Below are positions 23,190 through 33,834 of a stretch of 64,000 nt of DNA, piece by piece. The translations under genes and the position numbers were made by a program. This DNA is from Oscillospiraceae bacterium. Its GTDB lineage: Bacteria > Bacillota > Clostridia > UBA1212 > SIG427. The notes below the pieces were generated by a model. The model saw nothing but the letters and a program-made list of their open reading frames with translations. It made no database searches and was not told the DNA's origin. Each line of letters starts with the position of its first letter. Within the stretch, counting starts at the first letter, position 1. The stretch spans positions 105,953-169,952 of the forward strand of contig SVJE01000002.1 of the NCBI GenBank assembly GCA_015069135.1, in the 5' to 3' direction.

Positions 23190-23735
23190 TTAACCGAAGT
23201 ATCTTGCCAAGAGGCCTTCAAAAGCCTTACCATGGCGAGCCTCGTCGCGGGCCATTTCGTGCACTGTGTCATGGATAGCGTCTAAACCTAACTCTTTAGC
23301 TAATTTAGCAAGTTCAAACTTACCTAATGTAGCGCCGTTTTCCGCATCTACTCTGAGCTCAAGATTTTTCTTTGTAGAGTCAGTTACAACTTCTCCTAAC
23401 AACTCAGCAAATTTAGCTGCGTGCTCAGCTTCCTCGTAAGCTGCTTTTTCCCAGTAGAGACCGATTTCAGGATAACCTTCACGGTGTGCTACTCTTGCCA
23501 TTGCTAAGTACATACCTACTTCGGAACATTCGCCCTCAAAGTTAGCTCTTAATCCTTCGATAATTCTCGGATCAACTCCCTTAGCTACGCCTACAACATG
23601 CTCTGCTGCCCAAGTTCTTTCGCCTTCTTCCTGCAAATTGAATTTCTCAGCAGGAACCTTGCACTGTGGGCAAAAATCAGGAGCACTGTCTCCTACATGA
23701 ACATAACCGCAAACTGAACATACATACTTTTTCAT
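23190..23735 (-). CDS. rbr: Reverse rubrerythrin (N-terminal rubredoxin-like CxxC..CxxC domain plus a ferritin-like diiron domain)
   Basis: [27 protein letters not shown] at the N-terminus, then ExxH diiron motifs. GGAGG RBS. The gene is followed by an intrinsic terminator at 23136-23180. Confidence 0.8.
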
Positions 23736-23781
23736 AATAAAAACCTCCAAATAAATTCATAAATTTAAATTTTTTCTTTTT

Positions 23782-24159
23782 TTATATATTTTCTGCACAC
23801 TGGCAGCAAATACCTTTAACACTTATGAAGCAGGCCACCGGATTTATTCCTGTCTGAGAGAAAACTTCCTTTTCGGTTTCACTCATATCATATTCGAAAT
23901 CCATTACCTTTCCACACCTTATACAGGATGCATGTTGGTGGGGGTGAAGGGTTCCGTCGTATCTGTCAGGTCCATCTGCCATGGTAAGCTTAATAATTTC
24001 ACCGGCTTCTGCTAACTGATTAAGATCTCTGTAAACCGTTCCCATACTTATCTCAGGATTTGTCCTATGAACTATCTCGTAGACTTCCTCTGCAGTGGGA
24101 TGAATTTTGTTATTCATAACTGCTTCTTTAATAATTTCTCTCTTACGAGAATATCTCAT
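23782..24159 (-). CDS. perR: Fur-family peroxide-responsive repressor (PerR-like)
   Basis: Fur-family winged-helix N-terminus and C-terminal CxxC...CxxC. The gene lies immediately upstream of rubrerythrin, in the perR-rbr arrangement described for C. acetobutylicum. Confidence 0.65.
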   Translation of the reverse strand: MRYSRKREIIKEAVMNNKIHPTAEEVYEIVHRTNPEISMGTVYRDLNQLAEAGEIIKLTMADGPDRYDGTLHPHQHASCIRCGKVMDFEYDMSETEKEVFSQTGINPVACFISVKGICCQCAENI

Positions 24160-24191
24160 GGTGTCTCCTCCTCTCAAAGTTTATTATCACT

Positions 24192-24248
24192 AACAGTAAT
24201 GATTACTGTTTACGGTTATAATTATAGCAGATAAAAATTCTATGTCAA
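24192..24248 (-). promoter_or_regulatory. Sigma-A promoter for perR-rbr (TTGACA-16-TATAAT on the minus strand), with a 19-bp Fur/PerR-box-like palindrome AACAGTAATGATTACTGTT just downstream of the -10 element
   Basis: Reverse complement of 24216-24248 reads TTGACAtagaatttttatctgcTATAAT. The palindrome spans 24192-24210. Confidence 0.55.
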
Positions 24249-28420: not shown

Positions 28421-28487
28421 CAAACATAAACCCTGTGCCATAGTATATTAGTGTAGAACAAAACAAATTAACATGGAGGTATTTCCT

Positions 28488-28625
28488 ATGGGTTGCTTTA
28501 ATTTTGATTGTGAGTGGGTAATCTGGGTTATTTTAATCCTTGCCATTCTTACTATCCTGAGCAATTGCTACGATAATGGCTGTGGTTGTGGCCGTGGACG
28601 TGACAATGACTCCTGTGGCTGCTAA
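28488..28625 (+). CDS. Small (45-aa) Cys-rich membrane peptide MGCFNFDCEWVIWVILILAILTILSNCYDNGCGCGRGRDNDSCGC
   Basis: GGAGGT RBS 7 nt upstream. One TM helix plus a Cys/Gly-rich tail. Followed by an intrinsic terminator at 28636-28680. Absent from the ORF track because it is shorter than 60 aa. Confidence 0.35.
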   Translation: MGCFNFDCEWVIWVILILAILTILSNCYDNGCGCGRGRDNDSCGC

Positions 28626-28730
28626 TGATTAAAGTCACAAACACCCCCTTGGGCATCTTGCCCCTGGGGGTTTGTTTTGTTATAATAAAGATTAGTAAAT
28701 TTTACTATTCGTATAAAGGAGAGCAAATAT

Positions 28731-30638
28731 ATGAAAGACCGTTGGGAATTAAGAAAAAATGAGATAGTCTGGAAAGTTAAAGAAGGCGCTCATGTTGATA
28801 ATATTGAAATGGCAGGCCGTAAGATGGCAACTGTTGTTTATTATGGTGTGGATGAAGAAGGTAAGCTTGATTTAAAGAAAAGAGTATTTTACCCAACACT
28901 CCGTATGATTCCTAACCATACTCATGCATCATGTGCAAGAGAGTACAGCAAAGAAGAATATCTTAAGTTTGCTATCATGGGAAATGAGATTAAGGAGATG
29001 CCTTATGAAGTAAGAATTTCCGGCATGTTGACAATTTATTCCCGTGACAGCGAGAGAAAACTTAAGATTACAAGAATGATTTTCCCGTCAATTGATAAAA
29101 TGGCATATATTGAGCATACAACAGTTCAGAATATTTCAAACGATATTCAGGTTGTATCTTGTAACATGTTCAGTAACACTGTTTATGAAAGAGGTACAAA
29201 AGGCGTTTATGCTTTAGAAGTTGATACAAAGGGTCCTCAGACAGTTACTCTTAAAGTTGGTGAAACCGTATCTTACGATACAGTTTTTACAGCAAGAAAG
29301 CTTGTTGAAAAACGTCCTGAAGTTAACGGTGTTAAAGAGATGACAAGAAGAAAAGAATTTGTAAATGATATTTTTACAAAGAGTCTTGTACTTGAATCAG
29401 AAGATCCGATTCTTGACTGCGAATTTAACTTCTCTAAACTCCGTATTACAGAGAGTATTTTTGATACAATGCATGGCCCGATGCATGGTCCAGGCGGACA
29501 GGCTTATTACGCTGCTATTTGGGCTAACGATGAGGCTGAGTACGCAGCTCCTTATTTTGGATTTGCGGGTAACGACTATGCAGATGAAGCTACAATTAAT
29601 GTAATGAAGTTATACAGACCATTCATGCATCCTGAAATGTATCACATCCCTGCTTCTATTATTTCAGAGGGTAATGATATCTGGGAGGCTCCCGGCGATT
29701 TAGGTGATGCATCCATGTATCTTTATGGTATGACAAGATTCCTTTTACAGAAGGGCGATATCGAGCTTGCAAAAGAGTACTTTGATACAATTGACTGGTG
29801 TGTACGCTTTGCAGCTACAAAAGAAAATGAGCATCATGTAATTGAATCTGATGCAGATGAACTTGAGAACAGACTCCCTTCCGGTAACGCAAACTTGCTT
29901 AACAACAGTTTGACTTATGGTGGTCTTATGGGTGCTTACTACATTGCAAAAGACTTAGGCTTAGAAGAAAAAGCAGCTGAGTACAGAGATTTTGCTGCAA
30001 GAGTAAGAGAGGGTATTGAGAACCACTTCGGTGGTGAAATTGATGGTTACCATACATATATGTACTTTAACGGATGTGACGTTTTAAGATCATACATGTG
30101 TGCACCTCTTACAGTAGGTATCTACGACAGAAAAGAAGGTACAGCAAATGCATTGTTAGAAAAGCTCTGGACAGAAAATGGTCTCTTGTCAGCGCAGGAC
30201 AACGAAATGTTCTGGGATAGATCTACCTTGTATGCTCTTCGTGGTATTTTCAGCGCGGGTATGTGTGAAAAAGGTTACAAGCACCTTAACGAATACAATC
30301 ACCAGAGACTTTTAGGTGACCATGTTCCATATCCTATTGAAGCATGGCCGGAAGGAAACCAGAGACACTTGTCTGCTGAAGGTGGTCTCTATGCAAGAAT
30401 TATTATTGAAGGTATGTTTGGTATTAACCCAACAGGATTCAGAAGTTTTACTATTGCTCCTTCAATTCCCGCTCGTCAGGGTAGAATGGCTCTTCGCCGT
30501 ATTAAAGCTTTCGGTGGATGTTTCGATGTTGAAATTGAACGCTCCGGCAAGAAGTACGAAGTTAAGGTTGTAAATGCTGATGGTGTAGAACAGAACTTTA
30601 TTGTTCCGTTGGAAGGTAGTATCGAGGTTACTATTTAA
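28731..30638 (+). CDS. Uncharacterised ~635-aa cytoplasmic carbohydrate-enzyme-like protein (paralogue B of 12846..14762)
   Basis: Roughly 35 to 40% identity with paralogue A across the full length. AAGGAG RBS. Confidence 0.35.
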   Translation: MKDRWELRKNEIVWKVKEGAHVDNIEMAGRKMATVVYYGVDEEGKLDLKKRVFYPTLRMIPNHTHASCAREYSKEEYLKFAIMGNEIKEMPYEVRISGMLTIYSRDSERKLKITRMIFPSIDKMAYIEHTTVQNISNDIQVVSCNMFSNTVYERGTKGVYALEVDTKGPQTVTLKVGETVSYDTVFTARKLVEKRPEVNGVKEMTRRKEFVNDIFTKSLVLESEDPILDCEFNFSKLRITESIFDTMHGPMHGPGGQAYYAAIWANDEAEYAAPYFGFAGNDYADEATINVMKLYRPFMHPEMYHIPASIISEGNDIWEAPGDLGDASMYLYGMTRFLLQKGDIELAKEYFDTIDWCVRFAATKENEHHVIESDADELENRLPSGNANLLNNSLTYGGLMGAYYIAKDLGLEEKAAEYRDFAARVREGIENHFGGEIDGYHTYMYFNGCDVLRSYMCAPLTVGIYDRKEGTANALLEKLWTENGLLSAQDNEMFWDRSTLYALRGIFSAGMCEKGYKHLNEYNHQRLLGDHVPYPIEAWPEGNQRHLSAEGGLYARIIIEGMFGINPTGFRSFTIAPSIPARQGRMALRRIKAFGGCFDVEIERSGKKYEVKVVNADGVEQNFIVPLEGSIEVTI

Positions 30639-30640
30639 TT

Positions 30641-31147
30641 ATGAGAAAATTTTGGAATGTACAGAACAAGGTGTTACGCCTTGTTCTGTTGGCTTTATTT
30701 ACGGCAGCGATTGCTGTGACAACTGCATATTTATCAATACCTAATGGTTTTGGAGGATATATTCATTTAGGAGACGGCATTATATTTATGTCAGCAATGC
30801 TTTTAGGTCCTGCCGGCGCCATTTCTGCAGGTGTGGGATCCGGTCTTGCAGATCTCTTGGTAGGATACGGAATGTATGCACCGGTTACACTTGTTATAAA
30901 GTGTATTATGGGATTGCTTGTAGGTTGTTTCTATAGCAGAAAAGGTAATGCAATGTCATTTCTTGTGAATATAGGACTGTTCATACTGGCTGAAGTTGTT
31001 ATGGTAGTAGGGTATTTTGGTTACGAAGTTATTCTGTATGGTTTTGAGGGTGCACTGGCAGGTGTTCCGGCCAATGCAATACAGGCTGTCGCCGGGATTG
31101 CAATTGGGGCTGTATTTACTCCCTTTGTTAAAAAAATAAAACTGTAA
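30641..31147 (+). CDS. Small polytopic membrane protein, ECF-transporter S-component-like
   Basis: 168 aa with five or six TM helices. Starts 3 bp after the paralogue B stop, which implies translational coupling. Followed by an intrinsic terminator at 31164-31208. Confidence 0.35.
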   Translation: MRKFWNVQNKVLRLVLLALFTAAIAVTTAYLSIPNGFGGYIHLGDGIIFMSAMLLGPAGAISAGVGSGLADLLVGYGMYAPVTLVIKCIMGLLVGCFYSRKGNAMSFLVNIGLFILAEVVMVVGYFGYEVILYGFEGALAGVPANAIQAVAGIAIGAVFTPFVKKIKL

Positions 31148-31307
31148 AAGTGTATTTTTTATAAAAATCGATTCAATTTTTGTTTTTGAATCGGTTTTTT
31201 TTATTTTCTAATAATTACAAAGTGCCCGGAAAATCGACATTTTAAATGGCATGAAAGAAAAATATAAAAAATTTTAAAAAAAATCAAAAAAATTTGTCAA
31301 AAAGGTA

Positions 31308-31335
31308 TTGACATTTTTTTAACGTGTGTTATAAT
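31308..31335 (+). promoter_or_regulatory. Near-consensus sigma-A promoter: TTGACA-16-TGtTATAAT (extended -10) with an A-tract UP-like region upstream
   Basis: Read directly from the sequence. No protein-coding gene follows on this strand. Confidence 0.6.
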
Positions 31336-31341
31336 GTAACC

Positions 31342-31850
31342 AGAAACAAGGAAAGAGAGGAACGGTCCAATGTACTAGGTAGTAATTAATATTCATAGAA
31401 GGTGGAAATAAGAACTTTAAATCTGAAGACTCCTTAGGTTTTTAAAATGAACGTTAACCGCGATTACATAGATTAAGTTCTTGATGGACATACAAATATA
31501 AACTGAACGTCAGATTTAGTTTGATAATGAAACCGGATGAATATTAGAAATCAAAAACAGGCAGTCAACCTTAACAACATAGATTACATGAAAGCCAGGG
31601 AATTCTCCTTCGAGAAAAAAATGATTACCAGTTGTGTTTGAAGAGTTGTAACGGTGATGTAAAGGATGACAAATCAGTTTAGTTGGTTAGTAGGAAGTAG
31701 TACAGAAAAGAAAGGAAGAAGATCGTAGTAAGCAAGTAACAAGTGAAAGCTTAGAAAGAGAGGATAACAAAAGATGTTAGATATCAAAAGTGAACAGAAA
31801 TAACCCTTGATTGCGAGAAGTAAAAAGCAATCAAGGGTTATTTCTTTTTA
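31342..31850 (+). ncRNA. Candidate ~500-nt purine-rich non-coding RNA (strong promoter to intrinsic terminator, no ORF of 60 aa or more and no RBS-led small ORF)
   Basis: Terminator AACCCTTGATTGC...GCAATCAAGGGTT plus a T-run at 31802-31850; it is bidirectional and also terminates the convergent minus-strand gene. Confidence 0.35.
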
Positions 31851-31869
31851 TCGTTAAATTTTTTTAAAA

Positions 31870-33834
31870 TCAAACCGGAGCAGGTGGAGGCTCCACCGCC
31901 TCGCCATTACTATGGACACCTTCAGCCTCAAGTGTTTCATCCTCTCCCAGATAACACTTCTTAAGATGCGCCACATATCCTGGCATGGAATAGCCATAAC
32001 TTACCAGCTGGCCCTGACAACCACGGTCTGGCATCATTTCACACATTTTAACCATATAATCTTCAGCATATTTAAGAGCTTCTTCTAAAGCTTTTCTCAC
32101 ATGATCAGGTTCCTCGCTGTCACGAATTTTATTCATGGAATCAATAACATCCAAGTGAATAAGAGATGTTTCGTATCGGTTTATTAAGAAACGAATCAGC
32201 TCAATACCGTCTTTGGAAATATTACCAGAAACCTCTAATATTTTATTAAGTTCATCCAAAATTTCTTTCATGCCTACACGGGCTTTCTGTGTATTTTCTT
32301 TAGTCCAGCCGCGGATCCAGTTAATACCGAAGTGGTTTGTCCAGCAAGGTAGGAAACAGAAACCTATGTTAAATAAATAATCACGACAGAAAATATCCAG
32401 CTCCCCGGCTTTGTACATGGTAGAGGCAAACATTTTACCGTTAATGCCAAAACTTTCAGCATAGTTTTCATACCAGATATTAACATCCACATATTCGCGG
32501 GTAACCGCTGCAGAGTAGGCTAGTGCCACACGATTCTCCTCTGTACGCCAATGATTAAAATACATAGCATGAATTGAATCCGCACCTGTAAATTCTTTCA
32601 GCCATTCCACATTACGACCGATTGCATTAGAAGCATTTTGTGAAATATACATATTGCCGTCAAATTCAACCCAGGAGTGAAGTACTGTTTTCTGGAAGTC
32701 CTCCGGTTCAAACTCCATGTCCTTAGCCACCATTATTACTGCTTCTGCACCATGAGCCGGCAGGAATGTACGAATCATGTCAGCTGGCAAAAGCTTGTCC
32801 ATTATGCGCTTAACCACATAAAGAGTTTCCCGATCCAATACATAAAGACCTACGCGAACAGGCACCGTCTTTATATACCTAAGCTGATTTATGGCCCTCT
32901 TTAAAGATTCCAGTGTGCCACAAATTTCTCCTGCATGGGTTTTCTGACTTTCATTAAGTCCCGGCAACGTGCCGTCTTCATTAAGAACCTTTTCACCAAA
33001 CAATTCTACAGCAAACTTTTTAATGTCTTCTGTTTTGTTGTAGTTTACGCTACTTGTACCACCACACTCAGGGGTGATAAGCTCCAGCATATCAATTAAA
33101 GGATAAAAGTCCAGGGCTTCTCTGGTAACATTCCAGTCTTCCGCAGGCTCTACGGACAAAGTGATGTGAAGACCACACTGGTAAGCAGTTTCCATAAGCT
33201 TGTTAAGCCATTTTACCGCAAACTTACCAACAGCTTCTTCTTGCCCGTAAAGGGCTTCACACTCGGGAATCATATAGTAATTGTCGTTGTTTACGGTCTC
33301 TCTTACACAGTCATAATCAGGTAGCTGATGAATACGTCCGTAGAAAAAATGCCCCGGGTTGTTGTGCCACATACCGTCATAGCTGTGGAAAGTAATTGCA
33401 TTCATTCCCATGCGGGCAAGAGAACGTATGTATTCCTGTGCCTCCTCGATGTGGTATGAAGAAATATCCATAGGAAAGTTTATGTGCTGGCGAATACCAC
33501 GAAGTCTTACGAAAGGCTTGATAACTTCGCTTTTACCCTGAATTTTGGTAAAATCCAACTTTTCAGGGTATCTTGTTTTTGTGTCGAAAACTATACCGGC
33601 CTTTTCAAGAACCAGATACATAGCTAAAAGCACTTCATTTTCTCTGGGACCTTTCATTAAAATGGTGTTGGCCTGAGTAAAATCATACCCGTAGCTGTAC
33701 TCATCCATATTCTCATCAGGCTGTAAAATAAAAGTAATGTCAGGATGCTTTGCACATACAGTTTCAATATGCATTTTAAGTTCCTTTTCTGCATACACTC
33801 CTATTTGACCGATGGTGTTGTTTATTATTTTCAT
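31870..33834 (-). CDS. Hypothetical 654-aa protein, possibly a TIM-barrel glycoside hydrolase (family undetermined)
   Basis: Cytoplasmic. RGIRQHINFPMD...MGMNAITFHS is loosely reminiscent of GH20/GH84-type barrels. This is a weak call. Confidence 0.25.
   Translation of the reverse strand: MKIINNTIGQIGVYAEKELKMHIETVCAKHPDITFILQPDENMDEYSYGYDFTQANTILMKGPRENEVLLAMYLVLEKAGIVFDTKTRYPEKLDFTKIQGKSEVIKPFVRLRGIRQHINFPMDISSYHIEEAQEYIRSLARMGMNAITFHSYDGMWHNNPGHFFYGRIHQLPDYDCVRETVNNDNYYMIPECEALYGQEEAVGKFAVKWLNKLMETAYQCGLHITLSVEPAEDWNVTREALDFYPLIDMLELITPECGGTSSVNYNKTEDIKKFAVELFGEKVLNEDGTLPGLNESQKTHAGEICGTLESLKRAINQLRYIKTVPVRVGLYVLDRETLYVVKRIMDKLLPADMIRTFLPAHGAEAVIMVAKDMEFEPEDFQKTVLHSWVEFDGNMYISQNASNAIGRNVEWLKEFTGADSIHAMYFNHWRTEENRVALAYSAAVTREYVDVNIWYENYAESFGINGKMFASTMYKAGELDIFCRDYLFNIGFCFLPCWTNHFGINWIRGWTKENTQKARVGMKEILDELNKILEVSGNISKDGIELIRFLINRYETSLIHLDVIDSMNKIRDSEEPDHVRKALEEALKYAEDYMVKMCEMMPDRGCQGQLVSYGYSMPGYVAHLKKCYLGEDETLEAEGVHSNGEAVEPPPAPV

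Follow-up and report, generated by a model that had tools for sequence, protein, structure and literature searches.

Results

We analysed a 64,000-nt stretch of DNA from an uncultured rumen or gut bacterium of the Oscillospiraceae (GenBank assembly GCA_015069135.1, contig SVJE01000002.1, positions 105,953 to 169,952 of the forward strand; hereafter the window, whose own numbering we use throughout) and found that the interval at 31148-31869, flanked by a gene for an ECF-transporter S component (ECF-S) and a convergent gene for a protein of 654 amino acids (aa), most likely holds a stand-alone Oscillospiraceae gene for a regulatory RNA of ~510 nt that belongs to a family absent from Rfam. Judged by its sequence and that of its relatives, the unit is predicted to be independent, strongly promoted, and efficiently terminated, with modules resembling ribosome-binding sites (RBSs) at both ends, and the candidate RNA would be purine-rich, C-poor, weakly structured, and without a protein-sized product. 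Our full reading, in which this small RNA (sRNA) stands alone, engages ribosomes through its end modules, and acts in trans as RNA, has in our estimation about an even chance of being right.

A strongly promoted transcription unit

An original prediction, made from the letters of the window, had singled out this interval as a near-consensus promoter with an extended -10 that drives a transcript without open reading frames (ORFs). The promoter held up well: it scores 12/12 and carries the extended -10 TG in addition, it is the top site within 28-36 kb, and it is one of two perfect TTGACA-N16-18-TATAAT sites in the 64 kb, where 0.07 would be expected by chance; the other, at 24221-24248 on the minus strand, drives an ordinary Fur-family gene. 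An UP-like A-tract proposed upstream of the -35 was found as an A/T-rich tract (Table 1), which is not conserved in the Vescimonas homologues described below. Inside this tract, on the minus strand, a divergent promoter-like site (31300-31271; TTGACA-18-TAAAAT, 11/12) would point antisense toward the ECF-S gene, and we count it as probably a chance occurrence because it is not conserved in the homologue at locus L168. Farther upstream, the intrinsic terminator of the ECF-S gene is predicted to separate the element from upstream transcription.

From the geometry of promoter and terminator, transcription would start at A31342, 7 nt past the -10, and would end at the U-run of the element's own intrinsic terminator, whose stem of 19-22 bp (arms 95% complementary) closes a 12-nt loop. 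This terminator had been called bidirectional; the plus-strand terminator was borne out, whereas the minus-strand tail, GTTCACTTTTG, is a weak T-run, and a separate minus-strand terminator-like site lies at 31895-31876. The longest plus-strand ORF from promoter to terminator spans 34 aa, in keeping with the earlier statement that no ORF of at least 60 aa is present.

Table 1. The element, its predicted parts, and its flanking features in window coordinates
Feature	Position	Strand	Description or basis
A/T-rich, UP-element-like tract upstream of -35	31262..31300	+	Sequence; alignments
Sigma-A type promoter	31308..31335	+	TTGACA 31308-31313, 16-nt spacer ending TGt, TATAAT 31330-31335
Predicted transcript, ~511 nt	31342..31852	+	Promoter and terminator geometry
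5' module	31354..31382	+	Shine-Dalgarno AGAGAGGAA, 9 nt, AUG UAC UAG, then GUAG; family motif RGUCCRAUGNNCUARGWAG
Lineage-specific purine-rich body	31386..31752	+	Aligns with L168, not with Vescimonas
Central block kept in window and L168	31562..31659	+	CAGUC..AACAAC ... AUUACAUGAAAGCCAGGGAAUUCUCCUUCGAGAAAA ... GUUGUAACGGUGAUG
3' module	31757..31803	+	Shine-Dalgarno AGAGAGGAUAAC, then AUG UUA GAU AUC AAA AGU GAA CAG AAA UAA
Intrinsic terminator, hairpin and U-run	31793..31852	+	Arms 31793-31814 / 31827-31848
Intrinsic terminator of upstream ECF-S gene	31163..31199	+	AAAAATCGATTCAA / TTGAATCGGTTTTT arms and T-run; inverted-repeat scan
ECF-transporter S-component gene	30641-31147	+	PF07155
654-aa gene, convergent	31870-33834	-	No Pfam or NCBIfam match

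Homologues and purifying selection

The named genomes closest to the window are Oscillospiraceae/Ruminococcaceae metagenome-assembled genomes. Relatives of the window lineage were found via the 654-aa gene and then searched for the element with nhmmer, and two of them, both metagenome-assembled genomes (L168 and L166), carry it. At L168 the element lies beside a homologue of the 654-aa gene (79% protein identity) and matches over 31262-31863 at E=5.8e-43, while the ECF-S gene is missing; at L166, where the neighbouring protein is 90% identical, the match (E=5.9e-19) covers the 3' end only, because the contig ends inside the element. A version of ~283 nt occurs in the cultured Vescimonas species V. 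fastidiosa MM35, where its 3' block was found by blastn of a plasmid collection (E=7e-6 against 7.3 Gb) on the minus strand of an 861-kb second replicon (NZ_AP023416.1:65175-65457); it fills an unannotated gap between a TetR-family gene and spoVAC, a setting non-syntenic with the window, and the same TetR-element-spoVAC arrangement recurs in L181, a Vescimonas-like metagenome-assembled genome. L168, V. fastidiosa, and L181 all retain, at the same relative position, a hexamer resembling a -35, a spacer of 17 nt, TGn, and a -10; over all members the spacer measures 16-17 nt.

The element is far better conserved than the DNA around it, and the comparisons show purifying selection on it. The V. 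fastidiosa and L181 copies are 97.9% identical (6 mismatches and two 1-nt indels), against 81% and 77% for the upstream and downstream intergenic sequence and 64-90% for the four-fold sites in adjacent genes; for the window compared with L168, the element is 74% identical and its 3' block 87%, against 43-55% at four-fold sites. The pattern of change is not that of a coding sequence. Mismatches between the window and L168 fall 36/39/36 by codon phase (p=0.92), as against 116/71/334 in the neighbouring gene, and 18/22 indels are not multiples of 3. Every ORF of at least 20 aa, on either strand, is disrupted in a sister sequence, and the 1-nt indels by which V. fastidiosa and L181 differ interrupt all of the longer ORFs, whichever the strand. 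We therefore conclude from the selection, the non-coding substitution pattern, and the broken ORFs together that the body is functional and non-coding. A protein-coding gene or pseudogene was rejected, as the 34-aa ORF of the window, the 57/72-aa ORFs of L168, and the minus-strand 78-aa ORF of V. fastidiosa lose their frame in sisters. Nor did we find a type I toxin-antitoxin system, which would call for a conserved hydrophobic toxin ORF of 20-60 aa with an overlapping antisense RNA: indels in the sister sequences interrupt the hydrophobic minus-strand ORFs of the window (37 aa) and of V. fastidiosa (78 aa), and the substitutions show no 3-periodicity.

Conserved modules at both ends

Homology between the window lineage and Vescimonas, a distant gut genus, is confined to the two ends of the element, and each end carries a Shine-Dalgarno (SD) sequence with a mini-ORF. 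The original prediction had stated that the small ORFs of the region lack an RBS; this proved mistaken, as two mini-ORFs carry well-spaced, conserved SD sequences. Its broader picture of an ORF-less non-coding RNA (ncRNA) survives in part: comparative evidence sustains an orphan promoter and a non-protein candidate ncRNA, whereas the most conserved parts are the SD-plus-AUG mini-ORF modules themselves.

The 5' module follows a plan of SD, AUG, one sense codon, and stop, realised in the window at 31354-31378 with good spacing and kept in homologues, as GAGAGGAAC-...-AUG UAC UAG in the window, AGGAGGUAC-...-AUG UAC UAA in L168, and AGGGUGAGU-...-AUG ACC UAA in Vescimonas. The three SD sequences differ, and complementarity to the anti-SD and a usable distance to the AUG are retained; what appears to be maintained at the 5' end is SD function and not exact sequence. 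Counted from the predicted start, the SD occupies +13 to +21 in the window and ~+7 to +12 in Vescimonas, and the 5' motif always falls ~10-25 nt past the predicted start in family members. A search of 1.435 Mb of collected DNA for RGUCCRAUGUACUARGWAG with <=3 mismatches returned family members only.

At the 3' end, the mini-ORF of the window (GAGAGGAUAACAAAAG-AUG...UAA, 31757-31803), which encodes MLDIKSEQK* at 31774-31803, is likewise kept in homologues. The consensus of the module is GAAAG(A/C)GAGG-(A/U)AUAA-AAA-G, then AUG UUA GAU AUC AAR AGU GAA; the block AUGUUAGAUAUCAARAGUGAA is followed by one or two codons and by a stop within the 5' arm of the terminator, giving the peptides MLDIKSEQK* (window, L168, and L166), (M)MLDIKSEG* (V. 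fastidiosa), and (M)MLDIKNEG* (L181). This SD-ORF adjoining the terminator, with its stop inside the stem arm at 31793-31814, is conserved in 5 sequences, and a hidden Markov model built from the window lineage alone matches the Vescimonas 3' block at E=4.6e-9. The terminator is itself conserved across genera in its apical stem, CCCUUGAYUGC / GCARUCAAGGG; in the same 5 sequences 100% of the cells of the stem are paired and 5 pairs are altered on both sides, a covariation score reached by 0/500 shuffles, and slid controls pair at only 35-48%.

The nucleotides of the 3' ORF appear to be under constraint in their own right. Vescimonas host genes have a G+C content at third codon positions (GC3) of 82%, and the genes neighbouring the element use TTA for 0/121 Leu codons, AGT for 4% of Ser codons, and GAA for 15% of Glu codons; the Vescimonas 3' ORF keeps TTA, AGT, and GAA all the same. 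Because it retains codons that its genes avoid, these comparisons argue that the 3' segment is constrained as RNA. Of the three substitutions in the mini-ORF, two are synonymous, and a stop is always present (UAA, UGA, or UAG), although stop retention carries little weight because the stop codon positions double as stem positions. We also considered the start of a serS gene or a T-box remnant, since seryl-tRNA synthetases often begin with MLDIK, and found no support for either: neither the window nor the loci hold a serS-like ORF, MLDIK occurs only in the element, and nothing found here supports a serS link.

Composition, structure, and known RNA families

The A/G-rich, C-poor character noted earlier is real: 31342-31795 is 64% purine and 11.5% C, which makes it the most purine-rich 454-nt stretch of the plus strand in the whole window, and the purine share is 64-65% in all four full-length members. 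This shared composition does not extend to shared sequence, as we found no homology between the bodies of the window and Vescimonas versions; their Smith-Waterman score equals the shuffle mean, and homology of the middle regions between genera was accordingly rejected.

Within the body, an RNAalifold prediction from two sequences only, the window and L168, places a long-range helix at 31562-31579 / 31645-31659 around a UUCUC-CUUC-GAGAA hairpin, with the conserved block ...CAGGGAAUUCUCCUUCGAGAAAA inside; within it, the same two sequences differ by one compensatory change, from C-G to U-A, and by several changes that wobble pairing would accommodate. The Vescimonas body is moderately stable (z = -2.3) and predicted to be rod-like, and 5/7 of its internal differences from L181 fall at predicted unpaired positions and 1 replaces C by U within a predicted pair, which is consistent with the predicted fold and not significant. 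Short internal direct repeats (D3 and D4) are two-copy and not kept in L168, and we take them as chance; pairing between the 5' and 3' ends (CUAA/UUAG, GUCC/GGAU) was rejected, as it is not consistently kept across lineages.

The earlier failure to match the region to a known RNA family was confirmed. Against Rfam 15 the 64-kb window returned only tRNA at gathering thresholds, and at E<=10 the elements of the window, V. fastidiosa (locus L170), and L168 returned only sub-threshold miRNA and sRNA models, all on the terminator hairpin; none of the scans gave a T-box match. We therefore rejected membership in a known RNA family.

Discussion

On the reading that we favour, a stand-alone sRNA acting in trans, both end modules would be look-alikes of translation-initiation regions that engage 30S or 70S ribosomes. 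The C-poor, purine-rich make-up of the RNA would keep a long untranslated transcript free of Rho, which loads on C-rich, G-poor RNA. At the 5' end, where an SD and a start-stop lie within ~30 nt of the predicted terminus, a bound ribosome would cover the end, and the module may thus act as a roadblock to 5'-end-dependent decay in the manner of the ermC and cryIIIA STAB-SD stabilisers of Firmicutes. Such 5' stabilisers are known as decay roadblocks (PMC3997798; PMC5737220). In Firmicutes a strong SD at the 5' end, or a ribosome stalled or initiating there, stabilises the RNA that follows even if no translation takes place (PMC3997798), and RNase J1 is blocked by initiating ribosomes (PMC5737220). 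The stable, abundant RNA would then have two working parts, the invariant 3' segment and the lineage-specific body, both acting in trans; they could pair with or sequester pyrimidine-rich RNAs, or bind ribosomes or an RNA-binding protein. Since both parts are rich in purines and themselves resemble RBSs, binding of this sort is more likely than a masking of other RBSs in the way of classical anti-SD seeds, which is improbable. The product that matters would be the RNA rather than the peptide.

Several observations weigh against this trans-acting RNA. The comparison of syntenic sites, which the original prediction had proposed as a check, cuts both ways: the element is present in L166 and L168 and is absent at the syntenic site in L165, L167, and L169, whose neighbouring proteins are 92%, 87%, and 89% identical. 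In other relatives of Vescimonas the ferredoxin (Fer4) gene and spoVAC are adjacent and the element is absent. This patchy distribution shows the gene to be dispensable. The family as sampled comprises five sequences from three independent lineages only, and covariation outside the terminator consequently rests on two-sequence comparisons. The ends of the transcript are placed by promoter and terminator geometry. A structured RNA had been implied, and folds of the window-type body with the terminator removed are no better than dinucleotide shuffles (z = +0.84 for the window and +0.65 for L168), so the body gives no structural signature; given this weak structure, we regard the family as one of linear motifs plus a terminator and not as an ornate structured RNA. 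When RNAduplex was run against 55 translation-initiation regions in the window, the duplexes were unrealistic multiloops and none was an outlier, which leaves the duplex search uninformative, with no partner or target found there. Finally, the conservation of MLDIK[S/N]E and the kept stop suit translation equally well, by the same alignments.

This last point brings up the best placed of the alternatives, though one we still consider unlikely: that the element is a tiny-peptide or dual-function mRNA in which the 8-9-aa fMLDIK(S/N)E.. peptide, or the act of translating it, is the function and the long 5' region a leader. An SD and an AUG at good spacing occur in all five sequences and in both genera, the amino-acid core MLDIKSE is conserved, and the changes TTA to CTA and AAA to AAG are synonymous, with a single non-synonymous change (S to N) and an in-frame stop always there, all three stop codons being used at one position. 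Three substitutions, however, have no statistical power, and the stop position is a compensated stem position at which the chance of retention is ~4/9. The nucleotides kept in a genome of GC3=82% exceed what the peptide needs, the peptide has no export signal, and selection acts also on the 5' module and the body. An extension of the ribosome-engaging idea, somewhat less probable again and offered as speculation, is that the two initiation look-alikes, a start-codon-stop site at the 5' end and, at the 3' end, an 8-9-codon ORF whose termination has to occur within the 19-22-bp hairpin, load ribosomes on an otherwise untranslated, Rho-proof RNA whose stability, activity, or release of fMLDIKSE reports or modulates translational capacity, with the body as its output. 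If true, this would be a kind of ncRNA not described in Firmicutes.

We consider it improbable that the element is instead a device acting in cis, either a leader-peptide attenuator with read-through at the stop or an antisense or insulating unit that acts on the 654-aa gene converging on the same terminator. The mini-ORF does end in the 5' arm of the terminator in all members, the unit and the 654-aa gene face each other in the window, L166, and L168, and a gene for a ribosome-associated GTPase lies further along (HflX in the window, an EF-G paralogue in Vescimonas). Yet the window lineage has no same-strand downstream gene to regulate, the next gene being convergent in the window, L166, and L168, and Vescimonas has no convergent gene, one to two terminator-like hairpins precede its spoVAC, and the arrangement of spoVAC and the EF-G gene is unchanged in relatives that lack the element. 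Inspection of the alignment revealed no conserved antiterminator; 4-5 bp are possible between an upstream segment and the 5' arm (AUCAA/UUGAU).

Slightly less probable still is a non-functional relic or mobile-element scar, such as the promoter or RBS and terminator of a decayed gene or the end of a horizontally spread cassette. The patchy presence among close relatives would agree with it, as would the non-homologous middles, an element that is AT-richer than its Vescimonas host, assemblies that break in or beside it (L004 and L166), and its place in a three-gene indel in Vescimonas. In V. fastidiosa (L170 845-3100) and L181, an SDR gene, the TetR gene, and the RNA element lie between a 4Fe-4S ferredoxin gene and spoVAC, and in the Vescimonas-like loci L177-L180, L182, and L183 the ferredoxin gene directly adjoins spoVAC; because of this direct adjacency we read the SDR-TetR-element block as an indel and conclude that the RNA gene travels within a small indel island. 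What speaks against a relic is conservation far above neutral in two independent species pairs and the maintenance of promoter and terminator, the latter by five compensatory pairs. We saw no integrase, transposase, terminal inverted repeats, or target duplications, and searches of viral contigs (with the two conserved patterns) and of phage records gave no match. In the plasmid collection the sole match was the 861-kb replicon of V. fastidiosa, and a second place in that replicon is lost at E<=1e-3. A phage or plasmid origin was rejected on these results. Searching relatives of the TetR gene for more family members yielded nothing; synteny yielded L166 and L168 only through relatives of the 654-aa gene, and L181 only through relatives of spoVAC.

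The proposal that the RNA is a protein sponge of the CsrB/RsmZ type, titrating CsrA with many GGA motifs, is very improbable. A purine-rich RNA with ~10 GGA motifs, a few of them inside SD-like sequences, would suit it, as would the 14 of L168 against 9.5 expected (p=0.06), but the claimed abundance of GGA in the window dissolves on counting (10, against 9.2 +/- 2.5 predicted by composition alone), which leaves the sponge unsupported, and in Vescimonas the motif is depleted (3, against 6.7-6.9 expected), the conserved 3' SD there is GAGGUA, without GGA, and the match to the CsrC model reaches 9 bits, where the gathering score is 61.

Among known systems, the element would work most like a stand-alone Firmicute sRNA with a 5' stabiliser, and its 3' end looks, by analogy, like a leader-peptide attenuator without a gene to regulate. 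With SR1/SR1P of B. subtilis and RNAIII/hld of S. aureus it shares a predicted sigma-A promoter and intrinsic terminator of its own, a length of a few hundred nt, an intergenic location, a conserved unpaired segment beside the terminator, and a small ORF on a regulatory RNA. Of the features that mark dual-function sRNAs, an independent intergenic transcription unit is thus found at the level of sequence, and a small ORF with a conserved peptide, MLDIK(S/N)E, is found as well, but with nucleotides conserved beyond codon degeneracy. The known Firmicute dual-function sRNAs have ORFs of 26-39 aa and C-rich, anti-SD-like seeds, whereas the ORFs of the element have 2 and 8-9 codons and its conserved segments are purine-rich and RBS-like; it has no sequence or Rfam relationship to them, and only its ends are conserved between genera.

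The likeness to cryIIIA STAB-SD, the ermC leader stall, and the hbs SD lies in a strong SD within ~20 nt of the predicted 5' end, conserved, as in 5' stabilisers, in function and not in exact sequence (three variants). Those stabilisers precede a real coding sequence, whereas the SD of the element leads to a start, one codon, and a stop, with no protein-sized ORF. In leader-peptide attenuators such as the ermC and cat leaders, vmlR, and the Listeria hflXr leader, a short SD-ORF likewise lies just upstream of and overlaps an intrinsic terminator; unlike them, the element has no regulated downstream gene and shows, on inspection of the alignment, no conserved antiterminator, and it carries 200-430 nt of conserved RNA upstream of its mini-ORF. 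Like CsrB/RsmZ it is non-coding, rich in purines, presumably abundant, and bounded by a strong promoter and terminator, and it differs in that GGA is neither enriched nor conserved and no model matches. It resembles 6S RNA as a presumably abundant RNA from a consensus promoter whose Vescimonas version is predicted to be rod-like, and differs in that RF00013 gave no match at E<=10 in three homologues, that the window-type body lacks significant structure, and that its 5' and 3' ends are both purine-rich and not mutually complementary. The element lies outside the Rfam families, CsrB/RsmZ, 6S RNA, and type I toxin-antitoxin systems, as for each of these the defining features that we looked for were absent.

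What is new here is a family absent from Rfam; its kind, the bacterial sRNA gene, is already known. Its anatomy is unusual, with RBS-like modules at both ends, a stop codon inside a sequence-conserved terminator, and a genus-specific body. If the modules recruit ribosomes to an ncRNA, the 5'-stabiliser principle of Firmicute mRNA decay would extend to sRNAs; if they do not, the element would be one more orphan sRNA, mainly of annotation value. Oscillospiraceae are among the most abundant bacteria of gut and rumen and among the least tractable, and their RNA regulators are almost uncharted. Since one member occurs in the cultured V. fastidiosa MM35, expression, ribosome binding, and partners are directly testable.

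Additional observations

Two independent assemblies (L004 and L166) break off within the element, in the 3' module or close to it, which fits strain-level presence/absence variation or a change in coverage at the locus. In V. fastidiosa an inverted repeat, GGGATTC-N6-GAATCCC (L170 ~2755-2778), abuts the -35 of the RNA gene, and a weaker form, AGAATTC-N6-GAATCCC, occurs in L181; it is a candidate operator, possibly for the adjacent TetR-family regulator. Between the terminator of the element and spoVAC lie one to two extra terminator-like sites, each a hairpin plus T-run (L170 3098-3200; L181 2331-2400), of which GGCGGGAACGCC plus Ts is conserved in both; these would suit a shielding of spoVAC from strong transcription of the unit before it.

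The second perfect promoter of the window belongs to a unit at 23190-24248 on the minus strand, in which TTGACA-N17-TATAAT (24221-24248) is followed by the palindrome AACAGTAATCATTACTGTT, a strong RBS, a Fur-family regulator gene (23782-24177; PF01475, 6e-27), and a rubrerythrin gene (23190-23750). From its sequence it looks like a classic autoregulated oxidative-stress unit of the PerR/Fur type.

Neither the 654-aa protein nor a 635-aa protein encoded upstream of the element (28731-30638, plus strand) has a Pfam domain. The 654-aa protein occurs in identical form on 23 metagenomic contigs and has >420 homologues at E<1e-20 in Clostridia, Bacteroidota, Verrucomicrobiota, Planctomycetota, Anaerolineae, and other groups, with invariant family motifs that include RGIRQHINF and NHWRTEEN; it appears to represent an enzyme family that is widespread and uncharacterised and possibly resembles glycoside hydrolases. 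Two small ORFs of 50 aa and 45 aa, for which Pfam gave no match, lie at 28473-28762 on the plus strand, immediately before the 635-aa gene, which they overlap. The 50-aa peptide has a hydrophobic core and a Cys/Gly-rich tail (..NCYDNGCGCGRGRDNDSCGC), and the gene calls of two metagenomic contigs, L001 and L003, place two 45-aa genes where these ORFs lie.

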